A DNA stretch of 32,000 nucleotides from Synechocystis sp. PCC 6803 substr. PCC-P (GCF_000284455.1 NC_017039.1:1350001-1382000); one strand, 5' to 3'. Shown: positions 15,800-32,000, counted from the stretch's first letter. Notes: a model not told the origin generated them from the letters alone. Made by a program: numbers and translations.

Positions 15800-16042
15800 T
15801 TAGCAATGGCGACGACGAAAGCGGGGATCAAACTTAGCTCCTTTACTGCCATTACAACTCTGACAAAGAGTTTGCAGATTACTCATGTCATTACTACCGC
15901 CCCTTGCCAAAGGAATAATGTGATCTACCTGTAAAGCCGTTTCATTGTGACTACAACCACAAGCTCGACAACGGTAATTATCCCTTCGGAAAACATACTC
16001 ACGAACGACGGCAGGGATGGGAATACGGGGCGTTTTTTCCAT
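15800..16042 (-). CDS. Small stand-alone HNH endonuclease
   Basis: YRCRACGCS...LQVDHIIPLARGGSNDMSNLQTLCQSCNGSKG is an HNH nuclease motif flanked by CxxC pairs. The probable start is the ATG at 16040-16042 (MEKTPRIPIP...). The track ORF extends to 16102. Confidence 0.8.
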   Translation of the reverse strand: MEKTPRIPIPAVVREYVFRRDNYRCRACGCSHNETALQVDHIIPLARGGSNDMSNLQTLCQSCNGSKGAKFDPRFRRRHC

Positions 16043-16155
16043 GGGAGTGGCACAAGAAACAAGGAAAATATCAATTTTTGTAAAGTCGAAGTCAACGGCC
16101 AATTAGTTTGAGCATAGCCTTGTATTAGAGCGATTTTTCCACTAACGAGGCTTCC

Positions 16156-18594
16156 ATGTCCAAGATTGCGCCCCAATGTCAGAATCTCCGTGAGCAAGTT
16201 AATCAGTTAATCGAGCTTCTGCGCCAGGAACCCACACTCCGCAGTCAGCAGGACACCAGCATTGTGGAAACGGCCTTAGGAAAGGCACTGTCCCCCCGGT
16301 TTGAAATTGTTTTTGCCGGGGCTTTTAGTGCCGGTAAGTCCATGCTGATCAATGCGTTGTTGGAGCGGGAATTGCTTTATAGTGCAGAAGGTCACGCCAC
16401 GGGGACAGAATGTCATATTGAATATGCTAACGCCAATGAAGAAAGGGTAGTGTTAACTTTTTTGAGTGAAGCGGAAATTCGTCAGCAGGCTTTGATTTTA
16501 GCAAAATATCTCAATGTCAATGTGGGGGATTTAAATATTAATCAACCTGAAGCAGTGAAGGTGGTTAGTCAATATTGTCAGAAAATAATTGCAGAAGAAG
16601 GGGGAGAAAATAAGTCAGAACGAGCCAAACAAGCCAATGCTCTACACTTACTACTAATAGGATTTGAGCAAAATCGAGAAAGGATTAATACTGTACAAAA
16701 TTCCACGTATTCTATGGATCAGTTAAATTTTTCTAGTTTAGCTGAAGCGGCAGGTTATGCGAGGCGGGGAGCTAATAGTGCGGTGCTTAAACGATTGGAT
16801 TATTTTTGTAATCACTCATTATTAAAAGATGGCAATGTCTTGGTGGATTTGCCAGGGATTGATGCCCCAGTTAAAGAAGATGCGGAAAGAGCTTACCGTA
16901 AAATTGAAAGCCCGGATACCTCAGCAGTGATCTGTGTGCTTAAACCAGCGGCAGCAGGAGATATGAGTGCAGAAGAAACACAATTATTAGAACGCATCAG
17001 CAAAAATCATGGCATCCGAGATCGGGTATTTTATGTGTTTAATCGCATTGACGATACTTGGTACAATACTCAACTGCGACAACGGCTAGAGGGTTTAATT
17101 CAGTCGCAATTTCGGGATAATTCTAGGGTCTATAAAACCAGTGGTTTACTTGGTTTCTACGGCAGTCAAGTTAAGCAGACTAATAGTAGTACTCGTTTTG
17201 GCTTGGACTCAATTTTTGCCACCACCATCAAAGGTTTTGACGGAGAGGAAGAAACACCACAATTTGTTAGCGAGTTTAATAACTACTGTGCTAATTCTGG
17301 TAAGTTATTGTCCACTGCTTTCCGGGTCTCGGTCAATGGTTATGAAACATCTAATGAAAATTATGTCAGAATTTTAAGTGAATGGGGAATACCATTAGTT
17401 GATCAACTAATCCATGACAGCGGAATTGAATCTTTTCGTTCTGGCATTGGTCTTTATTTAGCAGAGGAAAAATATCCTGAACTATTTGCAACTCTAGCTA
17501 ATGATTTGCAACCGTTATGTATTGCTCTACGGCAATTTTATCTAGAAAATTATCGGCAGTTAGATAGTCAGCCCCGGGAAATTGCGGCGATGAAAGCTCA
17601 GGAATTAACTTTGCTTAATCAAGAAATGCAAAATCTGGGTATTGAGTTCAAAAAATATATGAGTGCTCAAATTAATGATGTGGTTATCGGCAATGATCGG
17701 GAATTTGACCAAGATTTTACTAAGTTAAAAGCAAGAATGGTGGCTCGATTAGATGAGTTGTTAAAAACTTTTTCGGTAATGAATGCCTATAAGCGAGCAA
17801 CGGAAAGTCATCCTCGTAATTCCACAGCTCCTTTTATTGCAGTTTTGGTGGAGGCTTTATATTATCTTGCTAATGAATTGGAAGATGCTTTCATAGAAGC
17901 TATTCATGAGCTAGTTAAAAATTTCTTTCAACGATTAGGCGATCGCCTACGAAAAGTGGATTGTTACCATCAAGTTTATCGTTTGGTTGGCAATGATGGC
18001 GGTATTGAGCAACTATTACGACGGGCGGAAGAAGATATAACTAAAGCCTTGGTTAATGAAGCTCGAACGGAATGTGATCGTTATGTGCGGGAAAGTCCCC
18101 GATTTTATGATGAAGGTACTTTTTCCATTTATCAATTCCGGCAAACTCTCCAGCAAACTTCCCAGGGTTATGATGCCCAGGCGATCGTGGAAGCGGAACC
18201 AGCTATTAAGGAGTTGCTAAAACTAGATTTTGAACCTAAAGTTTTCAATACTGTACGGAAAAATTTCCGACAAACCGTCAATAATACCCTAAAAACCCAT
18301 CTGCTACCAATGGCAGAAGAACAAGCCCAAATAATTTTAGAACAGTATGATGTGGCAAGGAAATATCGTGAGCAAACGTTGGAACAGGATGCCGAAGAAA
18401 AAATTGCTCGCAATTCCCGTTTACAATCGGAGATTAAACAGAAAATCGATCTTTACCAAACGAGTATTGTTAGCATTAATGAATGTTTAAAAGCCATGCA
18501 AATTTTTGAGCAGTTACCTGTTATTACAGAATCAGACATTACTAAGCAAGCAGAAATAGTTGCAGATGCAGATTTTGTGGAAATAGTAGAATAA
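16156..18594 (+). CDS. Dynamin-family large GTPase (bacterial dynamin-like protein), 812 aa
   Basis: The Dynamin_N-type G domain is readable. G1 is FEIVFAGAFSAGKSMLINALLERELL (GAFSAGKS at 16318-16341). The candidate switch-I Thr lies in GHATGTECHIEY. G3 is VLVDLPGIDAP. The G4-like motif is VFYVFNRIDD. About 500 aa of predicted helical stalk follow. I saw no obvious TM segment. Confidence 0.8.
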   Translation: MSKIAPQCQNLREQVNQLIELLRQEPTLRSQQDTSIVETALGKALSPRFEIVFAGAFSAGKSMLINALLERELLYSAEGHATGTECHIEYANANEERVVLTFLSEAEIRQQALILAKYLNVNVGDLNINQPEAVKVVSQYCQKIIAEEGGENKSERAKQANALHLLLIGFEQNRERINTVQNSTYSMDQLNFSSLAEAAGYARRGANSAVLKRLDYFCNHSLLKDGNVLVDLPGIDAPVKEDAERAYRKIESPDTSAVICVLKPAAAGDMSAEETQLLERISKNHGIRDRVFYVFNRIDDTWYNTQLRQRLEGLIQSQFRDNSRVYKTSGLLGFYGSQVKQTNSSTRFGLDSIFATTIKGFDGEEETPQFVSEFNNYCANSGKLLSTAFRVSVNGYETSNENYVRILSEWGIPLVDQLIHDSGIESFRSGIGLYLAEEKYPELFATLANDLQPLCIALRQFYLENYRQLDSQPREIAAMKAQELTLLNQEMQNLGIEFKKYMSAQINDVVIGNDREFDQDFTKLKARMVARLDELLKTFSVMNAYKRATESHPRNSTAPFIAVLVEALYYLANELEDAFIEAIHELVKNFFQRLGDRLRKVDCYHQVYRLVGNDGGIEQLLRRAEEDITKALVNEARTECDRYVRESPRFYDEGTFSIYQFRQTLQQTSQGYDAQAIVEAEPAIKELLKLDFEPKVFNTVRKNFRQTVNNTLKTHLLPMAEEQAQIILEQYDVARKYREQTLEQDAEEKIARNSRLQSEIKQKIDLYQTSIVSINECLKAMQIFEQLPVITESDITKQAEIVADADFVEIVE

Positions 18595-18682
18595 TCAACC
18601 ATGAATTAAAATCTACATTGAGACCAGCAAATAGCTGAATAATTTTTCTTTTGATTTAAGTAACCTTTCTGACATACAAGCA

Positions 18683-19045
18683 ATGCAAATTATCTACGAC
18701 GAATTCCTAGAATCCCTAAATGCTGATGACGTCCTACAGTTATTAGACAAACAGTTTCCCGGCAAATTGTTTTCAGTATCTCGTATTAAACATACCTTAG
18801 AATATTCTTTTCAGCAGCCACCACAAGAGAAATTTATTGAGCAATTAGAACTTGGATCTAGAGCAAGCATTTACTTGGGTCAAGGTGTTGATTGTCGAAT
18901 TTTAAAAGCTGGATCCAGTGGCTGGAAAAAAGGAAGGATTGCAGTTAATGTGTCTGTAGAGTTCATTCCCGATGAGCCTGAGGCAAATGAATATCAATCT
19001 CCGTTAGATGAAATTCGTCGAGAAATACAATCTGATCTTCAATGA
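18683..19045 (+). CDS. Small KGK-like protein, paralog 1 (120 aa)
   Basis: The product ends ...SSGWKKGRIAVNVSVEFIPDEPEANEYQSPLDEIRREIQSDLQ. It shares the (K)KG(K/R)-I-x-(V/I)-x-(L/V)-EFIPDE ... SPLDEIRRE tail with the next two ORFs. It resembles the cyanobacterial KGK domain (Pfam PF08872, recalled from memory). Confidence 0.7.
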   Translation: MQIIYDEFLESLNADDVLQLLDKQFPGKLFSVSRIKHTLEYSFQQPPQEKFIEQLELGSRASIYLGQGVDCRILKAGSSGWKKGRIAVNVSVEFIPDEPEANEYQSPLDEIRREIQSDLQ

Positions 19046-19069
19046 TTTATCAATTGAAATATTAAAAAT

Positions 19070-19453
19070 ATGAAAACCGACAAAATTGGCTACCTTAATT
19101 CACTCAGTGAAGACACTGTTATTGATTGTGGTAATAACCATTCCTTTTACAAAATTAAAACTTTAATCGGTGAGTTTGTTAATTTCTTTAAAACTGTACC
19201 CTGGTGTAATAAAGATTATTTTTATAAAGCTTTTCAAGTTAGTCTGAAAGACCATAAATCAATCGATATTAAACCAGAAATTTTTACAGAAGAAGGTATA
19301 ATTGCTGAAATTATTGATCCTAAATTGGACAAACCGCTAAAGGGAAAATTTAGAATAATCTTTGCCCTGGAGTTTATCCCGGATGAGGTTCAAGATTCAG
19401 TTTCGGATTCTCCCCTCGATGAGATTCGTCGAGAAATAGAGCAAAGTAGCTGA
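19070..19453 (+). CDS. Small KGK-like protein, paralog 2 (127 aa)
   Basis: The product ends ...KPLKGKFRIIFALEFIPDEVQDSVSDSPLDEIRREIEQSS. It starts 24 nt after paralog 1. Confidence 0.7.
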   Translation: MKTDKIGYLNSLSEDTVIDCGNNHSFYKIKTLIGEFVNFFKTVPWCNKDYFYKAFQVSLKDHKSIDIKPEIFTEEGIIAEIIDPKLDKPLKGKFRIIFALEFIPDEVQDSVSDSPLDEIRREIEQSS

Positions 19454-19463
19454 GGACATTACC

Positions 19464-19760
19464 ATGGACAAAAGACAATTACTTAACCCTGAAGATGTAG
19501 TTTCAGTAACTGACTCCGACAAAATATGTATTAATCATAAAACTTTTACTGTTCAAGAATTACTAGGAGCCTTTTTGACAAAATGGTTCAATAGTGATAT
19601 AGGCAAAAGGTGGTTATTTGAAGGTACAGAGTGCCAATATCTTGCCCCCGGTAAGCTATGGAAAAAAGGAAAAATTAAAATAAGCCTTGAATTTATTCCC
19701 GATGAAGCGGAATCACCTCTCGATGAAATTCGTCGAGAAATGACCGAAAATCAATCTTAA
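19464..19760 (+). CDS. Small KGK-like protein, paralog 3 (98 aa)
   Basis: The product ends ...LWKKGKIKISLEFIPDEAESPLDEIRREMTENQS. It starts 10 nt after paralog 2. Its N-terminal half aligns with paralog 2 (C-x-NH-x2-F ... L-x-G-x-F). Confidence 0.7.
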   Translation: MDKRQLLNPEDVVSVTDSDKICINHKTFTVQELLGAFLTKWFNSDIGKRWLFEGTECQYLAPGKLWKKGKIKISLEFIPDEAESPLDEIRREMTENQS

Positions 19761-20119
19761 AAAATTTAGGGATAAAATCAGGGAGCTGAAATATTAAATA
19801 TTAACAAGTTGAGTTTAGAAATAGAGGTAACAGGCGTTTTTAAACTCTCAATTATGATTCACCATACTCCTGTAAAAAGCTGAGGAACTCGGCCGGGGCT
19901 AATCGGGCATCTGGGCCAGGGAGTCGGGCAATAAAGCCAGGATGGTTACCATGGCATTATTCTGGCTAACCCACAACAACCCTAATTATGGCGATCGCCT
20001 AGAATAGAAAACTGAAAGCGGTAATGGAGCCTGAAAATCCCTGATAGTTTTTCTCTGGGGATTGGTTTGCTGAAAAGAGCCTAATTTAATCATTTATTTT
20101 CAAATAATCTCGTTAAACT

Positions 20120-21313
20120 TTGCTAACTTCACTTTTTTTGCCCCTACGTCGTTGCTCCTCCGTTTTATGGGGGGGATTACTCCTCAGCACATTAATGTTA
20201 AGCAGTTGTGCACCGCCCGATCCCCTAGAACAAAAAAGTCAGCCCCCACCGCCCAAGGAAGAAAGTAGCCTCACCCTCAACAATGCCACCCTAGAGCAAG
20301 CCAATGCTAAAGGGCAAACTGTCTGGAAAATTCAGGTGGAGGAAGCTCGGTATAGCGTTGATGGGAAGAATGCCACCCTAGTGAACGTGAAAGGGGATTT
20401 TTACGAAAATGGCAAAGTGGTGCTCCAGGTGAAGGCGGATAAGGGAGAAATTATTGAAGACGGCAAAGCATTATTTCTACGGGAAAATATTGTTGCCCTT
20501 GACCCCCGTAATAAGGCAGTGTTGCGGGCCCAGGAAGTGGAGTGGCAAACGGAATCTAGCATTCTCACTGCTCGGCAAAATTTGAAAGGGGAACACCCTG
20601 ATTTGACCGTGACCGCCAAGGAAGGACGCTATGAAACCAAGGAAGAAAAGCTGATTGTGTCCGGCGATGTGGTGGCGGTGACAGAACACAATACCAAAGA
20701 CCAAAATCAACCCAAGGACCCCCGTCGCTTGGAACTCAAAACCGACAGAATTACCTGGGAAATTAAAAACAACCGGGTTTTTGGCGATCGCCCGTTGACC
20801 CTAGTGCGCTTTGTGGATAAAACTGCCACCGACGAAGTGAAAAGTAACCAAGCAGAATTGTTGCTGAAACAACAGTTGGTACATTTAGCAGGCTTAAATC
20901 AATTTAAATCCGTTGAACCGCCGTTGCAAATTGCCGCCGAACCCATTAGTTGGTCTTACCTAAACCGCTTTGTCTCCACCGATAATCCCATCACTATTGT
21001 GGATTATAAACAACAAATTACTGTGCGGGGTAACCGGGGAGCAGTCAATCTAGCCGACGGGATAGCTAAACTAGAGCAGGGCACTAATACTACGAGCCAG
21101 GAGCAACAATCCCAACTGTATGCCGATGAGTTAACTTACAATTTTGGTCCCCAAACGTTGCAGGCAAAAGGAAATATTATCTATGAACAACAAAAAGGAG
21201 TGAAATTTAACCTCACAGGGGATTTAGCCCAGGGATCTTTACCGGATAATAATGTGGTGGTAACTAGTACTAGCCCCGAAAGGGTAGTGACAGAGATTTT
21301 CCCCAATCAATAA
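20120..21313 (+). CDS. Periplasmic lipoprotein, LptC/OstA-like (tentative)
   Basis: It has a TTG start and a signal peptide with the lipobox LMLSSC. The rest is beta-rich with repeated segments (for example LEQANAKGQTVWKIQVEEARYS, KADKGEIIEDGKALFLRENI) that resemble LptC/LptA-fold proteins. The family call is from memory only. Confidence 0.4.
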   Translation: MLTSLFLPLRRCSSVLWGGLLLSTLMLSSCAPPDPLEQKSQPPPPKEESSLTLNNATLEQANAKGQTVWKIQVEEARYSVDGKNATLVNVKGDFYENGKVVLQVKADKGEIIEDGKALFLRENIVALDPRNKAVLRAQEVEWQTESSILTARQNLKGEHPDLTVTAKEGRYETKEEKLIVSGDVVAVTEHNTKDQNQPKDPRRLELKTDRITWEIKNNRVFGDRPLTLVRFVDKTATDEVKSNQAELLLKQQLVHLAGLNQFKSVEPPLQIAAEPISWSYLNRFVSTDNPITIVDYKQQITVRGNRGAVNLADGIAKLEQGTNTTSQEQQSQLYADELTYNFGPQTLQAKGNIIYEQQKGVKFNLTGDLAQGSLPDNNVVVTSTSPERVVTEIFPNQ

Positions 21314-21481
21314 AGCTAGTTATTAACTAAGCAAATTCGTAACGTTTACAACTCTAAGAGTCTGTTTTAAAAGCCCCTCTGGACGCCTAAATTTGGAAGA
21401 AAACTGAGTTAAAGTCCCCCATTATTGCCGGAGCTTTAGTGAGGAGATTTAGGGGGCAGAATGAAACTTTTCAAACACGTT

Positions 21482-24118
21482 CTAAAAGCCAAAAATATCT
21501 AACTGTTTAGCTTGATCTTCCGCTGCTTCAGCAGCCGCTTGACTAGCCATAACTTTACCCCGATTACCCTTACGTAAACCGACAGCAATTTTACTATGCT
21601 TTTCAATCTGGGCCATTACCTGGCGGGCCCTGGTAATCACTGAACTAGGCAATCCCGCTAAACGTCCCGCTTCAATGCCATAGGATTTATCGGCTCCCCC
21701 CGGTGTTACTTGGTGTAAAAAGATAATTTCCTCTGGCAATTCTTTCACCGTAACTTGAAAGTTAGCCACATTTTCCAGTAAAGAAGCCAACTCGTTTAAC
21801 TCATGGTAATGGGTAGCAAAAATTGTCCGGGCTTGGATTTCCCCCGCTAGATACTCCGCCACCGACCAGGCGATCGCCAAACCGTCAAAGGTGGCCGTGC
21901 CCCGGCCAATTTCATCCAGTAATACCAGGGATTTAGCCGTGGCATGGTTAAGAATATTGGCAGTTTCATTCATTTCCACCATAAAAGTAGACTGCCCCGT
22001 AGCTAGATCATCCACGGCCCCTACTCTGGTAAAAATACGGTCACAAATGCTCAGGGTCGCGGTTTTAGCAGGAATAAAGCTGCCGGTTTGGGCCATTAAC
22101 TGTATTAAGCCAACTTGACGCAAATAACAACTTTTGCCACTGGCGTTGGGCCCCGTCAAAATTACTAAATCAGGATGCCAATGGTCGTGGCCCAATTGGG
22201 TGTCGTTAGCAACAAAAAAACCTGCCCCAAGGGATTGTTCCACCACTGGATGGCGACCTGCTTCAATGTCAATTAAGCCTGGTTCCATTTGCATAATGGG
22301 ACGGCAATAACCCTGATAAACTGCCACTTCCGCTAGACCTGCCAACACATCGATCGCCGCTACGGCCTTGGCCACGTCCCGAATTGGTTGGGCTTTTTCT
22401 GCTACTGTGGCCCGCACTTCGGTAAAAATTTCATACTCCAATTGATTCAAGTCAGCTTGGGCGGTGAGAATACGGGTTTCCCGCTCTTTTAATTCCGGTG
22501 TAATGTATCTTTCTTCATTGACTAAAGTTTGTTTGCGAATGTAATTGTCTGGGGCCTGTTCCGATTTACTGCGGGGTAGACTTAAATAATAACCAAAGGC
22601 TTTGTTATAACCAACTTTTAAATTAGCAATACCAGTTTTTTCCCGCTCCGTTACTTCCAAATTAGCTAACCATTGATTATCATCTTCCAAACTTTGACGC
22701 ATTTCATCCAACGTCGGGTTAACACCACTACGAATTAAATTGCCTTCCCGAATATGTAAGGGGGGATTTTCCACAATGTGGGCTAACACATATTTGCCCA
22801 ATTCTTCCAACTCCGGCGGCACTGTCTGTAAGGCTTTTAAATAGGGGCTATGGCCTTCCTGAGCTAACTCAGCTAAATCCGTCAACCGCACCAAAGAAGA
22901 TGCTAAGCCATACACATCCCTAGCACTGGCGGTGTTGGCCCCAATTCGCCCCGTTAACCGTTCCAAATCGTAAATTTGCCGGAGCAATTGCCGCAAATCC
23001 TGACGCAAAGCGGGATGATGGTACAACTCTTGGATGGTGTCCTGGCGAGCTTGGATACCTTTGAGATCCAATAAAGGCTGCAATAACCAACGCCGCAAAG
23101 CCCGACTACCCATGGTGGTGCTGGTGCGATCTAAAGCCCACAGTAGGGAACCATGGAAACTACCATCCCGCACGGTTTGGTTAATTTCCAAGTTGCGTCG
23201 GGTTTGGTGATCCAAAACCAGAAAATCGGTTAAGCCATAGGTTTTTAATGGTTGAATGGGCACCACATGGGCTTTTTGGGTATCTTCGATATATTCCAAT
23301 AATCCCCCCGCCGCCCGGATTGCTAGGGGTAAACCTTCACAGCCCATGCCCTCCAAAGATTTAACTCGAAAAGTGGTTAGTAATCTCTGTTTTGCTTCCA
23401 CCAAGGAAAAGGGCGCTTGGGAACGGAGAGAATAACAAAAACTGGTGGGTAACTGTTTAGGAATATGCTCTGAAGGTTCCCCAGGGCGCAAAATATTGCG
23501 AATATCGGGGGCAGAGGTGGGTATCAATACTTCCGACGGTTGGAGTCGAAGTAATTCCACTGCTAGGTCATCCAAATTACTGGATTGGCACGTAAAAAAT
23601 TCCCCAGTGGAGATATCCGCATGGGCCAGGCCCCATTTATCCTCCACCATGGCGATCGCCGCCAGGAAATTATTCCGCTTGGCCGGAAGCATACTGTCAT
23701 CGGTCAAAGTGCCGGGGGTGAGTAACTTGGTCACCTGCCGTTCCACCATGCGTTTTTCTGCCTGGGCTTCCGCTGCATCCTCCACCTGGTCACAGATGGC
23801 CACCGCATAACCCTTTTCCACCAACTGCCGCGCATAGCGATCCAAGGCGTGGTGGGGTACCCCAGTCATGGCCACCCGGCCGATTTCCTTGCCCCCCTCT
23901 TTGCTAGTTAAAATCAGTTCCAATTCCCTAGCAATGATCACCGCATCCTGGAAAAAACACTCAAAAAAGTCCCCCACCCGGTAAAGCAACAAAGCCCCTT
24001 GATACTGTTCCTTAACCTCCGTGTAGTGCTGGAACATCGGCGTCAACTTCTGGCGATCGAGGGTGCGATAGTCCCGTTGGGGTTCTTTAACAGTGCCGAG
24101 GATCGGAGTATCAGTCAT
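21482..24118 (-). CDS. mutS: DNA mismatch repair protein MutS
   Basis: The N-terminal mismatch-binding region is [30 protein letters not shown]. Walker A is [10 protein letters not shown] and Walker B is [11 protein letters not shown], followed by FATHYHEL. The likely start is the ATG at 24116-24118 (MTDTPILG...). The track ORF extends to 24220. Confidence 0.93.
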
Positions 24119-24377
24119 GGAAAGGGAAAATTCTGTGGAGCAGCCTTTAATTGTATGAGATTTATCGAAAGCCATCATCAAACTAGTGCATTGATTAGTG
24201 CACTTAAGTCGGCAATCCATAGGAAAAAATATAGTAAATTTTTAGTAAAGTCTTGCCGTCATTGCAAAAGCACGTATTAGTATCGACGGGCGGTTTTATC
24301 GCCTTTTATTCTGTTACCATTACCATAAGAGTGTCTTCCTACGCAAATTTTATAGGATAAAAAAACACATAAGGCTT

Positions 24378-27300
24378 ATGGATTTTACTAAAATAAAGAG
24401 AATTGAAGAGAATTTAAACAGGCTTGAGGACTGTTCTGTTGATGAGTTAAAAGTTTTAACTGATGAACTGTTAGCTTCCATTTGTGAAACCTTAAATATT
24501 TCTCAGAGTTCTAACCTTATTTCAGCTTTATTTAATGAGCGAACAAGTACCAACCAAAAAAAACTAATAGCCGTATCTATGCTAAGAGCCTTATGCAGGA
24601 ATCAAAGCGTAGTTTGGAATCACAATAGTGTCACACTACGCAATAAAACATTTGATTTATTCGATGAGATTTTAGTGGATATTTATAAGCAGTTTCAGAT
24701 AGATATTAAATCAGATAAAGAAGAAAAAACATCAAAACTTCAAGAAATTGAAGGAAATTTAAATCGCAAGTTCTTTAATCTTGAACAATCAATTTGTGAC
24801 TTGAAGGATTTGGATAAATTCAAAAGCGACTTTATGCAATTTTTGTTTGCTGATAAAGTTAATAGCTTTATTTTTAGACAGTTTTCAGATGAAGATATCT
24901 TAAGTAAACCTAAAATACAATCACTATTTAAAATTCTTCAAGATTATCAAAAAAGCAATTCTGTTGAATCAAAAATCAACTATTATGACAATATAAAAAA
25001 TAGTTATCAGGAATTTATTGATCAATGTTCCAAACAATCAGAATTAGTTGAAACTTGTATTGGTAATTTTTTCAAGAGGCTACTTAATTTAGTTGATGAA
25101 GATTATACAAAGAGAGATGATATTGTTCCAACAATAATACGTGTAGAACTCATAAAGAAAAAATATCCTCTCCACATAAAAGACCAACTATTAAATATAG
25201 AAATTCAAGTGAATAATATAGGCAAAGGAAAAGCTTTTGATATTGAAGTTACTCTTGATGTAGATGATAGTTTATTGATGCTTTATGACCCTAAAATATA
25301 TATTGGAAATCTCGAGCCATTAGAATCTACACATCGGATATTTGAAGCCAAAATTCTTGTGCAGAAAAACAAAGAAAAACTAGAAGAAATTATCTTGGGT
25401 AGAGTTGATTGGTATAACTGCGACAAGACCAGGTGCCATGAAGAATTTAGTGGTGAGTTGCTTCCACAAAATACAGAACTAAACTGGGAAAAATTAAGTA
25501 AGGAAAAACCCTACAGTTTAGAGGCTATTTCTAAAGAAAACGATTTAATTGGTCGTTCAGAACAAATTAGACAGCTTGAAAATAAAATTTTCTCTGACGA
25601 ATTAGAATCTTCAATCATCTTTGGACAAAAGAGAGTTGGAAAAACATCAATTGCCAAAATCATTGAAAATAAGCTAAAAAAACATTCACTCTATACTGCA
25701 ATTTATATTTCAGTAGGTTCCCTTGATAAAAGTTCTCCCGAAAAATTCTTAAAATCTTTAGGGGAATATATTTATGAAGAAATCATTGATGATCAACCAT
25801 TCAATGAATATAAACTTCCAGGGTTTGAGTTTGAAGATTCAATTACACCTTTAGATAAATTATTTAGAAAAATACGAAAAATTGAACCCAATCACAAATT
25901 TGTGATTATTCTTGATGAGTTCGATGAAATTCCTTCTCAATTATACAAGCTGACGGATATCGGAGACAATTTTTTTCATAATATTAGAAGTTTAAGCAGT
26001 AACAATAATATTGGATTTATTTTAGTTGGCGGAGAGAATATGACGACAATCAATCAATCAACTGATAAATTAAATAAATTTGAATCCTTTCCAGTTGATT
26101 ATTTTGATAAAGGAAGATTTTGGAAAGACTTTCAAGACTTAGTATGCAAACCTGTTGAAGGAATAATAGAATTTACTGATAATGCAATATTAGAACTCTA
26201 TAAAATGACAGAAGGAAATCCATTTTTTACAAAATTAATATGTGGAAATATTTATAATATGGCTTGTGAAACCAGAAACGCTTATGTTTCTTATGAAGAA
26301 GTTACTAAAGCAATCTCAAAGAGTTTATCTTCCATTAATAGTAATAATGTTAATCATTTCTGGAAAGATGGAATTAAAGAAAGCGATCCAGTAGAAGTAG
26401 ACAAAATTGAAACTCAGAGACGAAAATTTTTAATTTCTTATGCTAGAGAAATTCGCTCAGGCAAGAACAGCTTCACAAAAGAAGTCGTTCTGAATAATAG
26501 CATATTAGACAAGACTGTAACAACAAAGGTATTTGAAAGTTTCGTCAATCGCAAAATTTTGATTGAGGAATCTGAAAACTATAGATTTAAGCCTTTATTC
26601 TTTGATAAATGGCTAACAAATGAAGGTTTTAACATCATTACATCTGAAGCTCTTGATGAGCAAGCTATTGAAGAATTAGAAAAAGAAGAGGACAGGGCTT
26701 ATGTTGAAGACACAGAAATTGTTGATTTATGTAAATCATGGGGAGAGATCGCAACATACAGAGCACAACAAATTACACCTCAACACATTCGCAGTTGGCT
26801 TGATCAATTTTCAAACAATATTGAAAAACGTCTTATGTTCATTCTATTGTTAAATTTAAAGTTTTATACACAAATAGAAGTTAGAGAAAAACTAGGAATC
26901 ATTCATAATGAGGTAAAAAAAGGATTGGTATACAAGCTTCCCAAAAATGCAAAAGGGGAAACAAAAACAAGAGAAGTTTTATTAAGTGCTTTTGGGAGTC
27001 CAACAAAAAGCGGTTCTACCTACTTAAGATTATATGCGACGGTAAATAATTTTTATCGTAGTAGTTCACATAATGTGTCTTTGTCTAAAATCAAAGAAGC
27101 TATTATCCAAGATAAAGAAATTCAAAGAATTGTTTTTATAGAAGATATAATTGGTTCTGGTCAATCAATCATTAGAGGGCTTGATACATTGAGTAATTTA
27201 TGTGGATCTCTGATAAAAGAACATAAAATTACAGTCTTTGTTGGTGCTATCTGTGGCTTTGAATCGGGCATAGAAAATATTGAAATAAAAGGAAATGAAT

Positions 27301-27572
27301 TACCTTTTAATGTCAAGGTATTTGTCTGCGATCATCTCACCGAACAAGATCAGTGTTTCAGTGAGAGTTCATCAATGTTTAATTCTTCTCAGGAAAGGAA
27401 TAAAGCAAAAGAAATTGCTTATACTTATGGCAGTAAACTTGTTAAAACAATGCCTTTAGGATACAAAGATAATCAGCTCCTAGTTTCTTTTTTTGAAACC
27501 TGTCCCAATAATAGCCTTCCCATATTATGGGCAGAGAAAAGTGATTGGAAAGCTATCTTTAGAAGAGACTGA
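24378..27572 (+). CDS. 1064-aa multidomain protein: N-terminal helical region, possible beta-sandwich, STAND/AAA-type P-loop NTPase and C-terminal phosphoribosyltransferase-like domain
   Basis: The LIGRSEQIRQLENKI lead-in precedes Walker A GQKRVGKT (25623-25646). Walker B is FVIILDEFDE (25899-25928). A GNPFFTKLI helix follows, as seen in ATPase_2/AAA_16-type STAND NTPases. The C-terminal motif IVFIEDIIGSGQS (27129-27167) fits the type-I PRTase PRPP loop: hydrophobic run, two acidic residues, hydrophobic, then a small-residue G-x-S/T turn. Residues ~250-345 (IEIQVNNIGKGKAFDIEVTLDV...GNLEPLES) look like a CARDB-type beta-sandwich. Confidence 0.7.
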   Translation: MDFTKIKRIEENLNRLEDCSVDELKVLTDELLASICETLNISQSSNLISALFNERTSTNQKKLIAVSMLRALCRNQSVVWNHNSVTLRNKTFDLFDEILVDIYKQFQIDIKSDKEEKTSKLQEIEGNLNRKFFNLEQSICDLKDLDKFKSDFMQFLFADKVNSFIFRQFSDEDILSKPKIQSLFKILQDYQKSNSVESKINYYDNIKNSYQEFIDQCSKQSELVETCIGNFFKRLLNLVDEDYTKRDDIVPTIIRVELIKKKYPLHIKDQLLNIEIQVNNIGKGKAFDIEVTLDVDDSLLMLYDPKIYIGNLEPLESTHRIFEAKILVQKNKEKLEEIILGRVDWYNCDKTRCHEEFSGELLPQNTELNWEKLSKEKPYSLEAISKENDLIGRSEQIRQLENKIFSDELESSIIFGQKRVGKTSIAKIIENKLKKHSLYTAIYISVGSLDKSSPEKFLKSLGEYIYEEIIDDQPFNEYKLPGFEFEDSITPLDKLFRKIRKIEPNHKFVIILDEFDEIPSQLYKLTDIGDNFFHNIRSLSSNNNIGFILVGGENMTTINQSTDKLNKFESFPVDYFDKGRFWKDFQDLVCKPVEGIIEFTDNAILELYKMTEGNPFFTKLICGNIYNMACETRNAYVSYEEVTKAISKSLSSINSNNVNHFWKDGIKESDPVEVDKIETQRRKFLISYAREIRSGKNSFTKEVVLNNSILDKTVTTKVFESFVNRKILIEESENYRFKPLFFDKWLTNEGFNIITSEALDEQAIEELEKEEDRAYVEDTEIVDLCKSWGEIATYRAQQITPQHIRSWLDQFSNNIEKRLMFILLLNLKFYTQIEVREKLGIIHNEVKKGLVYKLPKNAKGETKTREVLLSAFGSPTKSGSTYLRLYATVNNFYRSSSHNVSLSKIKEAIIQDKEIQRIVFIEDIIGSGQSIIRGLDTLSNLCGSLIKEHKITVFVGAICGFESGIENIEIKGNELPFNVKVFVCDHLTEQDQCFSESSSMFNSSQERNKAKEIAYTYGSKLVKTMPLGYKDNQLLVSFFETCPNNSLPILWAEKSDWKAIFRRD

Positions 27573-27688
27573 TTTTTTATGATTATCGTTTTATCAAAAA
27601 TTGGGAATTATTGTTAATCATGTGCGTTTGTCGTGCGAGTATTTTACCAGCTATTTGCTAACCAAACCGCAAAAATCTAGATGATTGT

Positions 27689-28738
27689 CTAAACTCCCCT
27701 AAAGCCCACATTTGTATCCATTGCTTCCCGGGAATTTAAAGGCTTTGAAGCTTGCTTATCTTTTGCTGTTTTCAGATTATCAATAAAACTTAGTATTGCC
27801 CCCAACAACAACAAGATTCCGCCTAAATACTGAGCGTTTGTGGGCGTTTCCAGCAAGATTAGATAGGCAAAAATAATCGCCAAAATAGGAGTTACTAGAC
27901 TTGCTAAGTTAATTTGAATAAAACTTGCATTTTTGAGACCGGCTAACCAAGCCACTTGACCAACAACGACAATAATAGCACCATAAATTAACATCCATCG
28001 CCATAAAATGGGAGAAGAAACATCCATAAAATGGTCAAATCCGTAAATAATAACTGCTATCCAAAAAAACACAAAAGTTCCCAGCAAACTACGATAAACA
28101 GTAAAAATACCTACGGGAATAGATTGTAATTGTTGCTTACTCAAAATTGTTGTGATTGCTGAAATAAAAGCGGCGATCGCCACAAAGCTTTCCCCCAAGC
28201 CAAAATCGAAATTTATCACCATATCAAGGGGATCAGCAACCCCCCAAAAAACCGTAACAGCGACTCCGACAAAGGAAATCAAGGTCGCCACCATGCTTAA
28301 CCAATTAACTGATATTTTCAGTAATAAAATACTTAAAATTAAGGTAAAAACTGGTTCCAGCCGTCCAATTAAAACCACATTTGTTACATTAGTTTTTTCC
28401 AAAGCACTGAACATTAATCCAGGGGCGATCGCCCTTGACAAAATGGCTGTAACAGTCAAAAGGAACCAATCTTTTCGGGTTAATTTTCTTAATTTATGAA
28501 GTTGCCAATCAGGGTGAAAAATTAAGATCATCAAACCCAAGGCGCATAAATTACCAACAAAGAGGACATTACAGAAGGAAATAGGATTCCGACCGTTGAT
28601 CTCATACGTTTTACCCAATTCAATAATACGACTAGTTACAGGATTGGCAGCCGAAAAAATAACAACGGCAAGGGCAAGATAAATTGGACTATGAACTTGT
28701 TTGAGAAAAGTCTGAAAGCCAGAAAAAACATGTTTCAT
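27689..28738 (-). CDS. DMT-superfamily (EamA-type) transporter, about 10 TM helices
   Basis: The 349-aa product is almost entirely hydrophobic helices arranged as two similar halves, as in EamA/DMT permeases. The C-terminal tail is hydrophilic. Confidence 0.75.
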   Translation of the reverse strand: MKHVFSGFQTFLKQVHSPIYLALAVVIFSAANPVTSRIIELGKTYEINGRNPISFCNVLFVGNLCALGLMILIFHPDWQLHKLRKLTRKDWFLLTVTAILSRAIAPGLMFSALEKTNVTNVVLIGRLEPVFTLILSILLLKISVNWLSMVATLISFVGVAVTVFWGVADPLDMVINFDFGLGESFVAIAAFISAITTILSKQQLQSIPVGIFTVYRSLLGTFVFFWIAVIIYGFDHFMDVSSPILWRWMLIYGAIIVVVGQVAWLAGLKNASFIQINLASLVTPILAIIFAYLILLETPTNAQYLGGILLLLGAILSFIDNLKTAKDKQASKPLNSREAMDTNVGFRGV

Positions 28739-28741
28739 TTA

Positions 28742-29095
28742 CTATGCTGATTCCTTTTGATAGCCAATGTGGGGAGCCGAATAGATAGAAACAAAAACTG
28801 CATTTTCCCGACCATGGTTAATTGCTCCGTGGACTTGATTTTTCTCGGCGATCGCCACTTCTCCTTGGTGCAAAATTTGACTTTGCCCATCCCCCAAACA
28901 GTAAGTTAAAGTACCTTTGAGCATCACCCAAGTGTCCTGACCATCGGGATGGGAATGGGGCTGAACAATCTGCTGAGGTTGAACGCCCCAAACCGCAATA
29001 CTAGAGTTTTCTGTCTCGATTACCGACGTTACCGTTGCCCCTTGCTCAGAAAAACAAGCAATTTGCTCTAGGTCAAAAATTCGTTGGCTATCCAT
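28742..29095 (-). CDS. Cupin-domain protein
   Basis: HSHPDGQDTWVMLKGTL ... GEVAIAEKNQVHGAINHG follows the two-motif cupin pattern (G-x5-H-x-H ... G-x5-P-x-G-x2-H-x3-N-like). The likely start is the ATG at 29093-29095. It lies 3 nt upstream of the DMT gene. Confidence 0.7.
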   Translation of the reverse strand: MDSQRIFDLEQIACFSEQGATVTSVIETENSSIAVWGVQPQQIVQPHSHPDGQDTWVMLKGTLTYCLGDGQSQILHQGEVAIAEKNQVHGAINHGRENAVFVSIYSAPHIGYQKESA

Positions 29096-29111
29096 TGCAA
29101 TAATCCTCTCT

Positions 29112-29819
29112 TTATTTGAACTGAGGACAGGTTTTACCGACGGAATCACATTGATAAATATAAGGCTTTTGCCAATGAAGTGGAATTTCCAGCAAATCCC
29201 TTGCCCCAGTTATGCCCTGACCAATAAAGAGCAATAAAGCGAAACTATTAATAATAATGTGGGCATTACGCCAACGATTTCGACGATCTTGATAAATATC
29301 TTGAATCGTAGCCACTGAAAAAATCATTAACAGCGCGGCTAAAATTCCATAATAAAAATGGGAGACAAGCCATTCATGGTCTCGACGATAAATTTCGGGC
29401 TGACAACCTAAGAGCACTAGTCCCATTCCCGTTAAGGTGGCAAAGATCCCCCGCCAAATTCTTGTTTTAGCTTGAAAAAGAAAGATGAAAGAAGTAATAC
29501 TTAAAATGAACAGCGCAATGATAAATAAAACCCGAAAAGGCTCTTCAGAAATTAGATTTTTATTAATAAACTTAGAAAAAATAGGATAGGCTAACCCTAG
29601 AAAAGTAACGCCCACCACCGCCATACTAAGATATCTTCCGATCGCCACGTGTTCGGTGCCAACGATGGGAGGAATTTTACTTTTCTCGCCCACCTTCATC
29701 GCCAAACGCCGTTCCCGGGTGAGTAAAGCACGGTTAAGCACAATGCCCAACAGAGGGAAAACCACAACCACGGCGATCGCCGGATGTAACAAAGCCCAGG
29801 TATCTTGAAAATCCATCAT
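29112..29819 (-). CDS. Polytopic membrane protein (DUF4079 / cytochrome b561-like, tentative)
   Basis: It has about 6 TM helices with conserved-looking His residues near helix ends (LLHPAIAV, SHFYYGIL, NAHIIINSF). The family name is from memory and has low certainty. Confidence 0.45.
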   Translation of the reverse strand: MMDFQDTWALLHPAIAVVVVFPLLGIVLNRALLTRERRLAMKVGEKSKIPPIVGTEHVAIGRYLSMAVVGVTFLGLAYPIFSKFINKNLISEEPFRVLFIIALFILSITSFIFLFQAKTRIWRGIFATLTGMGLVLLGCQPEIYRRDHEWLVSHFYYGILAALLMIFSVATIQDIYQDRRNRWRNAHIIINSFALLLFIGQGITGARDLLEIPLHWQKPYIYQCDSVGKTCPQFK

Positions 29820-29909
29820 AAAAATTAATCCCCGAGTTTATTAAACAATTTTTAAATAATTTAAGACTAAATATTTAAATTCTCTTTTTCCAGCAGAAAA
29901 AGGGATATT

Positions 29910-30917
29910 TTAAGAAGATTTTAGCCAAGAACCTGCAAATTTTTTAACAAATGTCAGAAGCCGTTGACGACGTGGAACAACCTCAACATCTTCGATAATG
30001 GGGGGAGTGCCTTGCATTGCCAAAATTTCATAGGCTTGCAGAGTAGTTTCTTTTTCTTTGAGGATGATTTGATTGCCGACCCTTGCCTGGTTCTTAATTA
30101 CCTGATAAACATCTTGGGAAACTAATAGTTGTGTTCCTTTTAGTTTGTTTGCTGATTCGAGAAGATTGACAATGGCGGCCACCTCACCTAGGGGCGTTAA
30201 TAGGGTAGATTGCGCCGCCACCAATGGAACAAAAACAACACTTCCAGAATGAATCCCCATACTTAAATTCAAGGGGCGATAGCGCATTTGATTTAATAAG
30301 GTATTTAATTCTTGAACTGATTTAAACATTTCCAAGGCTGCCCAAGTTGCCCTTTCTGCAGCAGAAACATCAAACTCCTTGAGACCAAAAGCAACCAACA
30401 TTTTTCGTCCCATGACGTTGGAAATTGTCCCTCCATATTTTTCAATAATTTTTTGCATTTGACTGAAATAGCGTCCCATAACATAGACAATATCGTAGGG
30501 AAAATTAACTTCATCAAAATTAGTTGCCCCACGAATATTAGCCATTAATAGGGCAACATTGCGCTCGGTATTGATTGCCCCCGTAGTTAATTGATGATCA
30601 ATTAAATCTATATCGCCCTCATCCAACACTAAACGACGGATAGTTGCTGAATTTGATAGTTTTGTTTGACACGCTAGACGGACGTGAAAGGGAAAATCTA
30701 ATTTTTTAGCAAGGGCTTGTTCGATACTGGTAGGAGGACTACAATTTTTTATACCATCTAGAACCATAATGCGGCAGGTTGAGCAATTGGCTTTCCCGCC
30801 GCACACACTTATGTGGGCAATATCACCCTTTAAAAGGGCATCCAAAATAGTCTCGTTTGAGTCAATTTCCAGTAATCGATTGTCGGGCAAACAGATAAGA
30901 GTCGGCACTTTATTCAC
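29910..30917 (-). CDS. [2Fe-2S] ferredoxin domain fused to a degenerate class III nucleotidyl-cyclase homology domain
   Basis: The N-terminus has the Cys pattern C-x5-C-x2-C...C (VCGGKANCSTCRIMV ... RLACQ). The C-terminal 200 aa align to the CHD fold (NVALLMANIRGATNF... YGGTISNVMGRKMLVAFG ... SMGIHSGSVV ... PLGEVAAIVNLLES). The canonical metal-binding Asp residues and the Asn/Arg are replaced. The start is a GTG. Confidence 0.65.
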   Translation of the reverse strand: MNKVPTLICLPDNRLLEIDSNETILDALLKGDIAHISVCGGKANCSTCRIMVLDGIKNCSPPTSIEQALAKKLDFPFHVRLACQTKLSNSATIRRLVLDEGDIDLIDHQLTTGAINTERNVALLMANIRGATNFDEVNFPYDIVYVMGRYFSQMQKIIEKYGGTISNVMGRKMLVAFGLKEFDVSAAERATWAALEMFKSVQELNTLLNQMRYRPLNLSMGIHSGSVVFVPLVAAQSTLLTPLGEVAAIVNLLESANKLKGTQLLVSQDVYQVIKNQARVGNQIILKEKETTLQAYEILAMQGTPPIIEDVEVVPRRQRLLTFVKKFAGSWLKSS

Positions 30918-31112
30918 GTTTAAATCTCTTAAATTTCCAGCAAGTCAGTGCTTTTTAATTACTTAAGTTAACTTATTAATCGCGTTTTGCTAATCAATCA
31001 GTTAGGTTAATTAATAGGCATTGCAGATCGAAGAAATAAAAACAAAATTGGTTATAAGTTTTGCTGGTTATATCCTAATTTTGCAACGCCTAAGATTAAA
31101 TTATTACTAATC

Positions 31113-31595
31113 TTAACCTTGCTCTTTCAAGCGAACCATTGCCGAACCAATGGGAATATCTCCATCGACACCCTCTAGCTTAGTGGTGACACGATAAAGA
31201 ACCCGTCCCCCCATTCGTGACATATCAATCCCCGATAATTGCAGTCTTACATAAGTATTAGCCTCAACCGGTTGGTTAAAGTCGATGGTTACTCCCCCAG
31301 GGGACACTTTTGTAGTGGTGGGAATTTCCTTGCCATTAGGATCAAAAGCTTTGACATCAATGGAACGCCCCATGTCAATGGGTAAACTAATGGTGGCCGA
31401 TTCTAAGGAAAATCCGGTAACGGCTAGGGTGATGTAGTGCATATTGCCGGCGGCTCCCACAAAACCAGAATCCGTGACAAAGGGAGTGGTAAAACGCATT
31501 ACCATTTGGGCTTGGGCTGGGAAATTAGCCAAGGGCAACAGAGCTACAGAAATAGCTAAAGCAGACAAAGAACTAACAAGGGGACGAATATTCAT
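31113..31595 (-). CDS. Secreted hypothetical protein (possibly DUF2808-like)
   Basis: The signal peptide MNIRPLVSSLSALAISVALLPLANFPAQA is clear. The mature part is beta-rich. The family assignment is uncertain. Confidence 0.5.
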   Translation of the reverse strand: MNIRPLVSSLSALAISVALLPLANFPAQAQMVMRFTTPFVTDSGFVGAAGNMHYITLAVTGFSLESATISLPIDMGRSIDVKAFDPNGKEIPTTTKVSPGGVTIDFNQPVEANTYVRLQLSGIDMSRMGGRVLYRVTTKLEGVDGDIPIGSAMVRLKEQG

Positions 31596-31629
31596 AGCGT
31601 TAAATTCCTTAAATTAGGAAAAAAATTAG

Positions 31630-32000
31630 TCAATTGCCAACAAAAAGAGACAGTAAAATGGCAATGGCATCCTCAGGTTCGTAGCGAACACGAAAGTCCA
31701 CATTGGCGTAAGCTAGGGCGATATGGCCGCGGCGATCAATTACAAATGTGGCCGGCACGGGTAATAACCATTCTTCGGTGCCATTGTGCTCAGGAATAAC
31801 ACAGCCTGATTGTAAATAAATTTGCTTAACAGCATCGGGAACGGTAAAAACTAATCCATAATCCTGAGCTGTTTGAAAACCACTGTCGCTGAGGAGATCG
31901 TAAGTCAAATCATGACGATCAATGGTTTTTTGAGAAGCAACTAGAGTTTGGGGAGAAATAGCCAGAATTGTCCCTCCCAATGCCCTAATTTTATTAACAA
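31630..32000 (-). CDS. AhpC/TSA (peroxiredoxin / thioredoxin-fold) family protein, C-terminal part; the 5' end lies beyond the right window edge
   Basis: ...ILAISPQTLVASQKTIDRHDLTYDLLSD ... PATFVIDRRGHIALAY is typical of the distal half of AhpC/TSA proteins. The frame stays open upstream of the track start to position 32000 (..VNKIRA-LGGTILAIS), so the gene is truncated by the window. Confidence 0.7.
   Translation of the reverse strand, partial: VNKIRALGGTILAISPQTLVASQKTIDRHDLTYDLLSDSGFQTAQDYGLVFTVPDAVKQIYLQSGCVIPEHNGTEEWLLPVPATFVIDRRGHIALAYANVDFRVRYEPEDAIAILLSLFVGN

Follow-up and report, generated by a model that had tools for sequence, protein, structure and literature searches.

The gene slr1243 of Synechocystis sp. 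PCC 6803 occupies positions 24378-27572 of the stretch of DNA analyzed here, 32,000 nt from substrain PCC-P (NC_017039.1:1350001-1382000), which is called the window below. On balance, though by no wide measure, we favor the view that it encodes an acquired, self-contained conflict protein, most likely acting in anti-phage abortive infection, in which a sensor, a nucleoside triphosphate (NTP)-driven switch and an effector consuming phosphoribosyl pyrophosphate (PRPP) would be combined in one polypeptide. The C-terminal phosphoribosyltransferase (PRTase)-like domain falls in the clade of the effectors of type III retrons, the gene is an accessory, horizontally transferred single-gene module, and members of its family are often placed in defense or mobile islands. 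An earlier note, made from the sequence alone, had proposed a candidate single-gene immune sensor/effector at this position; it stands as a candidate, while the labels 'orphan' and, in the strict sense, 'STAND' had to be corrected.

Domain layout of slr1243

The open reading frame (ORF) of 1064 aa described in the note is present, and its product is identical to slr1243 (BAA17822) of Synechocystis sp. PCC 6803. The identical protein is also found in AP012495, a record that we take to be the B. subtilis BEST7613 chimera. The sequence AAGG lies 5-8 nt 5′ of the ATG start, none of the other five frames over the gene has an open run longer than 75 codons, and the chance of 1064 stop-free codons at the base composition of the surrounding cassette is P ~1e-42. 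An AlphaFold2 model was built on 108 full-length homologs (mean predicted local distance difference test score, pLDDT, 92.2), together with a second model of residues 1-385 (pLDDT 88). The modules and motifs are as follows.

24164..27684, no strand: strain-specific cargo cassette, 3,521 bp, 30.5% GC, between mutS and an EamA transporter gene (flank alignment to Synechocystis sp. CACIAM 05)
24378..27572, + strand: slr1243 ORF, 1064 aa, ATG start
24378..25127, + strand: N-terminal all-helical domain, residues 1-250 (DSSP of the models), the fastest-evolving module and proposed sensor
25128..25481, + strand: immunoglobulin (Ig)-like beta-sandwich, residues 251-368, with eight strands at 254-363 and conserved KKYPL and N-x-G-x-G motifs
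25533..26285, + strand: AAA+/ATPase_2 (STAND-like) NTPase core and helical lid, residues 386-636 (ATPase_2 profile; Foldseek)
25623..25646, + strand: Walker A GQKRVGKT (K422), residues 416-423 (motif position and conservation)
25899..25928, + strand: extended Walker B FVIILDEFDE, residues 508-517, with D513, E514 and D516 invariant
26214..26228, + strand: GxP motif of the lid, GNPFF, residues 613-617, with G613 and P615 invariant
26286..26597, + strand: winged-helix domain, residues 637-740 (model: helices 639-724, then a hairpin at 728-737), with the conserved H660-F-W662-x-D-G-I
26598..26762, + strand: helical linker, residues 741-795 (model)
26787..27566, + strand: PRTase-CE effector domain, residues 804-1063 (PF24390 and PADLOC PRTase_III-A)
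27129..27167, + strand: PRPP-binding loop, residues 918-930, with E922, D923 and G928 (profile alignment to solved PRPP loops)
27459..27521, + strand: G-x14-PNN-x-L-P motif, residues 1028-1048, signature of retron-type PRTase-like effectors

The motifs named in the note (LIGRSE, GQKRVGKT, FVIILDEFDE, GNPFF and IVFIEDIIGSGQS, with K422, E922 and D923) all lie at the residues that it gave.

The C-terminal domain belongs to the retron-type PRTases

The Pfam family PF24390 (PRTase-CE) matches the C-terminal domain over its whole profile (positions 1-253 of 253) with E=1e-52 and 179.9 bits (cutoff 27). The PADLOC models of the retron type III-A PRTase also match over the whole PRTase part, the best with E=3e-41. 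The note's PRPP loop thus lies inside a PRTase-family domain, and its statement that type III retrons use PRTase effectors proved correct; their classification is given by Mestre et al. 2020 (PMC7736814), in which the III-A effectors correspond to clusters 67/113.

The PRPP-loop pattern, a hydrophobic strand followed by two acidic residues and x-x-G-[ST]-G, is seen in IVFIEDIIGSG at residues 918-928, the first part of IVFIEDIIGSGQS. In the AlphaFold2 model the C-terminus (~800-1064) is an alpha/beta domain with parallel strands at 917-925, 952-961 and 979-987 and flanking helices, and strand 917-925 runs into the PRPP loop. The second motif of the domain, G1028-x14-P1043-N-N-S-L-P1048, corresponds to Gx14PNNxP, the printed signature of retron-associated PRTase-like effectors (PMC12746101), with the last proline one residue further on.

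There was no Pfam match of slr1243 to PF00156 (Pribosyltran), PRTase_2 or PRTase_3 at E<=1, and NCBIfam holds no family for the protein, with PRK06031 appearing only at E=0.21 over 26 residues. A single-sequence search of the PDB with the C-terminal domain returned no match, and the solved structure of ShosT was not recovered by the slr1243 PRTase profile. The name 'PRTase-CE' of PF24390 was not traced to any paper in the literature search; Kaur et al. 2020 was considered as its source and set aside, since PRTase is unmentioned in the text and one supplementary file.

The NTPase is STAND-like

Residues 393-615 match the Pfam family ATPase_2 with E=3e-11 and 43.9 bits (cutoff 33.2), and AAA_22 and AAA also score above their cutoffs. 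AAA_16 (23.3 bits, cutoff 32.6), NB-ARC (17.6, cutoff 23.5) and nSTAND_NTPase4 (11.7, cutoff 27) stay below theirs, although precomputed nSTAND or NPHP3_N matches are present in some homologs. Of the STAND-type features, the domain has a Walker A motif, a Walker B motif with acidic extension and, in the lid, GxP; a winged helix comes next in the chain. The LIGRSE lead-in is at residues 390-395. Such P-loop/GxP/winged-helix motifs are said to have been described by Leipe et al. in 2004 as characteristic of STAND proteins. With the whole model, Foldseek returned AAA+ neighbors only, the best being 2qen (PAB2304), then RuvB, Orc1/Cdc6 and RFC. The note had placed the domain among STAND/ATPase_2/AAA_16 NTPases. 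Its ATPase_2 assignment holds. We describe the domain as STAND-like from its motifs and profiles; strict STAND membership is not established, because NB-ARC and AAA_16 remain below their cutoffs and the best structural neighbors are PAB2304, RuvB and Orc1/Cdc6.

The N-terminal module

As the note had surmised, the first ~250 aa are helical; they are all-helical in the model. This region has no Pfam match above cutoff and no convincing fold match. A profile of the N-terminus found no relative in PHROG and only noise among PDB sequences. When its fold was compared with viral structures, only generic Ig-like/FN3-like matches were obtained, with no sign of phage mimicry.

The following beta-sandwich, which the note had called 'CARDB-type', was matched by Foldseek to TRAP-beta, the ASH domain of OCRL, MSP, Caf1M and 2r39, at target-normalized template modeling (TM) scores of 0.35-0.52, and is best described as a generic Ig-like/E-set fold. 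The eight strands of the model bear out the sandwich, but the Pfam CARDB match (E=0.016) is below cutoff and so the name is valid at the level of the fold only. Within this module K262, Y263, P264 and N280 are conserved.

Catalytic motifs are conserved and the N-terminus is variable

Conservation was measured in an alignment of the 108 full-length homologs. The residues of the motifs named in the note are invariant or at least 90% conserved. The Walker A stretch G416-S424 is invariant or at least 90% conserved; G416, Q417 and R419-K422 are invariant, and position 418 is lysine in 107 of the 108. The motifs D513-E-F-D516-E, G551-x-E553, G613-x-P615 and the winged-helix H660-F-W662-x-D-G-I are likewise at least 90% conserved or invariant. 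Conservation reaches at least 99% at D/E922, D923 and G928 of the PRPP loop. The wider motif P-L-G1028-x14-P-N-N-x-L-P-x-L-W is again invariant or at least 90% conserved, and its residues G1028, P1043, N1044 and P1048 reach at least 94%. Outside the PRPP loop the PRTase part contains four further invariant residues, R805, Q810, F994 and R1063. Because the catalytic motifs of both are so strongly conserved, the two enzymatic modules look active. Mean pairwise identity is ~21% in the helical N-terminus, 27% in the Ig-like module, 38% in the PRTase and 43% in the AAA+ domain.

A transferred single-gene module

Both flanks of the cassette, 20000-24163 and 27685-30980, have counterparts in Synechocystis sp. 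CACIAM 05 with 95-96% identity; that strain has an unrelated 1,419 bp (locus L085, 9055-10473) in place of the slr1243 cassette. The presence of different cargo in a strain that is 95% identical suggests that the slot between the EamA gene and mutS is a small variable hotspot. The gene is not beside EamA in PCC 6714 or PCC 7339 either. Two observations were made on the contents of this slot: the replacement cargo of CACIAM 05 encodes a 259-aa protein with the C-terminus EPDF...VVEVDGDRWH and a weak, sub-threshold DUF559/REase-like match (E=0.0036), and PCC 6714 has a 167-aa DprA-like fragment after EamA.

At the other edge, mutS (21482-24220, - strand) is 912 aa long as a mechanical ORF and is called at 878, 898 or 912 aa in different assemblies. 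Homology to CACIAM 05 ends at 24163, inside the longest version, and for this reason the true start is probably that of the 878-aa version near 24118, the extra N-terminal codons being part of the cassette. At 24288-24304 (+ strand) the cassette contains a GC-rich hairpin with a T-run after it (GGGCGGTTTTATCGCC TTTTATT), ~75 nt 5′ of the slr1243 start. It lies in the gap from which mutS and slr1243 diverge and may serve as a terminator, as an insulator or as a leader element. Terminator-like sites numbered 3 against 1.2±1.2 expected, which is not significant, and promoter-like counts equaled the shuffle expectation.

The note's word 'orphan' can be kept only for the lack of a partner gene. More than 120 full-length relatives share 26-54% identity with slr1243, and a family-specific profile of the N-terminus (E<=1e-10) recovered 637 cluster representatives among 1.84 billion. 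When one genome per species was searched, 223 loci were found in 185,579 species genomes, or ~0.1% of species, from more than 20 phyla. The hosts include Cyanobacteria, Acidobacteriota, Chloroflexota, Planctomycetota, Bacteroidota, Gemmatimonadota, Myxococcota, Campylobacterota, Firmicutes, bacteria of the candidate phyla radiation (CPR) and Alpha-, Beta- and Gammaproteobacteria (Pseudomonas, Rhizobium, Mesorhizobium, Halomonas), together with the archaeal Woesearchaeota and Hodarchaeota. Complete members are almost all 1,045-1,085 aa long and have one fixed architecture. The shorter homologs examined were fragments or disrupted copies, or were of middle length with no other domain, and none carried an alternative effector on the same chassis.

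Four genes on each side of the homolog were clustered at 80 loci, and no family occurred in more than five of them. None of the neighbors of slr1243 in the window (dynamin, KGK, LptC, MutS, EamA, cupin, DUF4079, cyclase) was present at any of these loci. The family gene was more AT-rich than its flanks at 64 of 67 loci, by a median of 9.5 GC points. In Aliarcobacter (L090-L093, 1-7000) an identical homolog (P0088) closes an island whose right-hand chromosomal context differs between strains, with three contexts in all. The genes of this island, which include a TnsA-like or IS3 transposase, QueC, a nucleoside deoxyribosyltransferase, Ogg-HhH and DUF3800, make up a conflict-type block for the modification of nucleotides and bases.

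These results bear on another reading, that slr1243 is a housekeeping PRTase of nucleotide salvage in cyanobacteria, regulated by ATP. Its PRPP-binding loop is typical of type I PRTases and in the window it is located among housekeeping genes. However, the protein matches no metabolic PRTase family at E<=1, its distribution across phyla is sparse and patchy, no housekeeping orthologs in conserved synteny (which the note had named as an outcome that would speak against its proposal) were found, the sister Synechocystis strains do not have the gene at this site, and its GC content at third codon positions is 22.5% against 48% in mutS next to it. We regard this reading as highly improbable and effectively refuted.

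Defense genes near homologs

In a PADLOC census of 236 genes located within two positions of a homolog at the 80 loci, a full-length Gabija system, GajA (2e-203) and GajB (4e-160), was found directly upstream of the homolog in three Pseudomonas species. The Zorya protein ZacC (E=0) and subunits of type I restriction-modification (R-M) systems, among them HsdR (1e-131 and 4e-185), were also found near homologs, and further matches were to type IV restriction (mREase_IV), components of MADS and Old-family nucleases. Two decayed copies were noted as well. In one (L089, 6001-10297) a DDE_3 insertion sequence (IS) lies between the NTPase and PRTase parts, within a Gabija/DruA/SieB island; the other (L088, 6001-9186) is split into ORFs of 710 and 330 aa and has an integrase, transposases and the pair PIN/PhdYeFM as neighbors.

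Transposases, integrases and toxin-antitoxin (TA) genes are thus associated with the family, and the two disrupted copies show that disruption of the gene is tolerated. Both facts, as well as the lack of a defense island in the window, would fit a selfish or mobile-element module with no anti-phage role: an addiction module or toxin, a weapon in competition between elements, or a switch that arrests growth under stress. The gene has no cognate antitoxin or partner. The family is absent from the phage collection and plasmids yielded a single PRTase-only match, the neighbors are very often bona fide anti-phage systems, and all characterized relatives of the effector are anti-phage. We therefore rate this reading as quite unlikely.

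Comparison with known systems

The closest relative of the effector is that of retron III-A (for example Retron-Eco11), which belongs to the same clade. The PRPP loop reads IEDIIGSG in slr1243 and LTDTIGSG in Eco11, and both share G-x14-PNN, although PNN is continued as PNN-x-L-P in slr1243 and as PNNxP in the printed signature (PMC12746101). PRTases are also recurrently associated with a winged helix in this retron group (PMC7736814). In contrast to the retron, slr1243 has no reverse transcriptase (RT), no msr/msd RNA and no tripartite complex, and its control would be exerted in cis by the helical, Ig-like, AAA+ and winged-helix modules, ~800 aa in all. No RT was found among the called genes of the window, and an Rfam scan of 19000-32000 (E<=1) gave only two chance-level matches to unrelated families and no msr/msd non-coding RNA (ncRNA). 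With neither RT nor ncRNA, the slr1243 system is not a retron. That it is a degenerate or relocated type III retron which has lost both is suggested by the closeness of the effector domain to the III-A PRTase models. No neighbor is conserved at the 80 loci, in every case the PRTase is joined to one and the same N-terminal chassis, which is foreign to retron effectors, and strong conservation is seen in the catalytic motifs of the two enzymatic modules. This origin is extremely improbable.

Like the Avs/AVAST and other STAND or NLR-like proteins, slr1243 is a large single polypeptide with a P-loop switch, a variable sensor-like part and an enzymatic effector, and its family is patchy and horizontally transferred with members in defense islands. 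The order is reversed, however, with the sensor-like part N-terminal and the effector C-terminal. The putative sensor is helical and Ig-like rather than built of TPR, WD40 or LRR repeats, and matches no repeat family; the NTPase passes the cutoff of ATPase_2, not that of NB-ARC, NACHT or AAA_16; no Avs model in PADLOC matches; and the effector is a PRTase, not a nuclease, protease, SIR2 or TIR. Because of the missing Avs match, the sub-cutoff STAND profiles, the non-repeat sensor and the reversed order, we do not file slr1243 under Avs/NLR.

In ShosTA/PsyrTA, in Ophion (OpnC) and in NADR the killing or blocking component is also a PRPP-binding PRTase-like enzyme. These are two- or three-gene systems with an antitoxin or partner enzymes, and all lack a cis-acting NTPase switch. 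The PRTase_3 and Pribosyltran profiles match PsyrT but not slr1243, which has no ShosT or PsyrT match in PADLOC either and no conserved neighbor. PAB2304 (PDB 2qen) is the best structural and profile match to residues ~390-740, covering core, lid and winged helix, but it is a stand-alone ATPase of 350 aa with neither an N-terminal sensor-like module nor an effector. The note was not aware of a STAND protein with a C-terminal PRTase described as a defense system; our literature search found no paper describing an NTPase-PRTase fusion. What is already known is the domain itself: Pfam contains it, and relatives carry the NCBI name 'phosphoribosyltransferase-like protein'.

Proposed function

We believe that slr1243 is somewhat more probably an anti-phage abortive-infection protein than anything else, and from the behavior of related families we infer the following course for its trigger, oligomerization, chemistry and phenotype. 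A cue derived from an invader would be recognized by the fast-diverging N-terminal helical and Ig-like module. Recognition would lead to nucleotide binding or exchange and to oligomerization of the ATPase_2/STAND-like AAA+ domain and winged helix, and this in turn would activate the C-terminal retron-type PRTase-CE domain. The PRTase would then use up PRPP, either by transfer to an acceptor or by futile turnover, so that nucleotide synthesis would collapse and both phage replication and cell growth would halt.

Several studied systems provide the background for this scheme. Activation of the PRTase of Retron-Eco11 halves PRPP (a drop of ~50%) in an abortive defense (PMC12746101). ShosT binds PRPP and is toxic, and no base acceptor was found for it (PMC11961720). 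A pair of a retron-III-like PRTase and NADAR ('NADR') has been validated as a defense system, and the defense PRTases form one clade. The AT-rich signature of transfer in slr1243 and the defense-island and transposon neighbors of its homologs fit a role in defense or conflict.

Other results weigh against this proposal. In the window the neighbors of slr1243 are housekeeping genes and not a defense island. The survey of homologs that the note had suggested did find Gabija, type I R-M and Zorya beside them, but only about one-fifth of the loci have a recognized defense system within a few genes, a figure that is a lower bound and has no matched background. At E<=1 PADLOC matched slr1243 with its PRTase_III-A models only, leaving the N-terminal and NTPase parts uncovered. 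Matches of the C-terminal profile in the PDB were weak and individually non-significant (E=0.2-2.4), although 19 of the 23 were type I PRTases or PRPP synthetases and 17 aligned via their PRPP loops to the lvfvDDliGtG stretch (structures of OPRT, APRT and PRPP synthetase). The N-terminus may be so variable because of relaxed constraint and not because of an arms race. The absence of the family from the phage collection, and the single PRTase-only match among the plasmids, count here as well as against a selfish module. The literature search found no paper on slr1243.

We consider unlikely a variant in which slr1243 is a defense or conflict protein but its PRTase, instead of depleting PRPP in bulk, modifies one particular acceptor, be it an unusual base, an NTP, a nucleic acid or a protein, or makes a toxic or signaling nucleotide, while the winged helix and the RuvB/Orc-like AAA+ domain sense nucleic acid and not a phage protein. 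The failure to find a base acceptor for ShosT (PMC11961720) and the only partial drop in PRPP caused by Retron-Eco11 (PMC12746101) would be in keeping with specific modification. A dedicated acceptor site is also suggested by the clade's own strictly conserved G-x14-PNN-x-L-P-x-L-W motif together with the invariant R805, Q810, F994 and R1063, all outside the PRPP loop. As for nucleic-acid sensing, the retron III-A effectors pair the PRTase with a winged helix of the RuvB type (PMC7736814), Retron-Eco11 is triggered by helicases acting on msDNA (PMC12746101), and the closest folds of the NTPase are DNA-handling AAA+ proteins. This likeness to RuvB, Orc1 and RFC is generic (target-normalized TM 0.5-0.64), and the most variable part of the protein is its N-terminal module, not the winged helix.

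Other genes in the window

A dynamin-like GTPase gene of 812 aa (16156-19453 stretch, + strand; Dynamin_N E=2e-16, with a weak PADLOC match to LeoA, 5e-8) precedes two or three small genes with KGK domains, the third of which, 98 aa, is called just downstream (L081-L084). These genes lie in a second low-GC stretch at 17-20 kb (36-38% GC), and the dynamin-KGK stretch could form a separate module for membrane remodeling or conflict. A small HNH-endonuclease gene (15800-16102, - strand; 80 aa as called) lies immediately upstream of the dynamin gene; it is called in three of four assemblies and is uncalled in AP012495. At 29910-30917 (- strand) a 2Fe-2S ferredoxin domain is fused to a class III nucleotide cyclase that matches the Pycsar PycC models (E=3e-10). 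The fusion is unusual; the match is probably generic cyclase homology within a conserved housekeeping block.

Implications

PRTase-like effectors occur in several validated systems, namely type III retrons, ShosTA/PsyrTA, Ophion and NADR. In slr1243 the same effector is apparently placed under an ATP switch in cis within a single gene, so that gating and chemistry should be separable by point mutants (K422, D513/E514, E922/D923 and N1044/N1045). Cultivable Pseudomonas, Rhizobium, Mesorhizobium and Halomonas carry homologs and are usable for phage work, and the 1064-aa product of slr1243 in the model cyanobacterium PCC 6803 is given a testable role.

There may even be, although we hold it doubtful, a class of single-protein immune sensors, not recognized before, in which an Orc/STAND-like NTPase directly gates a retron-type PRTase and the dedicated G-x14-PNN-x-L-P-x-L-W pocket phosphoribosylates a specific acceptor (a nucleic-acid base, an NTP or a phage protein) instead of simply depleting PRPP. 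If this were true, slr1243, which would work without RT or msDNA, would for that reason provide the first simple one-gene handle on the PRTase chemistry of the retron III, NADR and Ophion type. For the family as a whole, the proposed function would add a new combination of sensor, switch and effector to the prokaryotic NLR-like repertoire.

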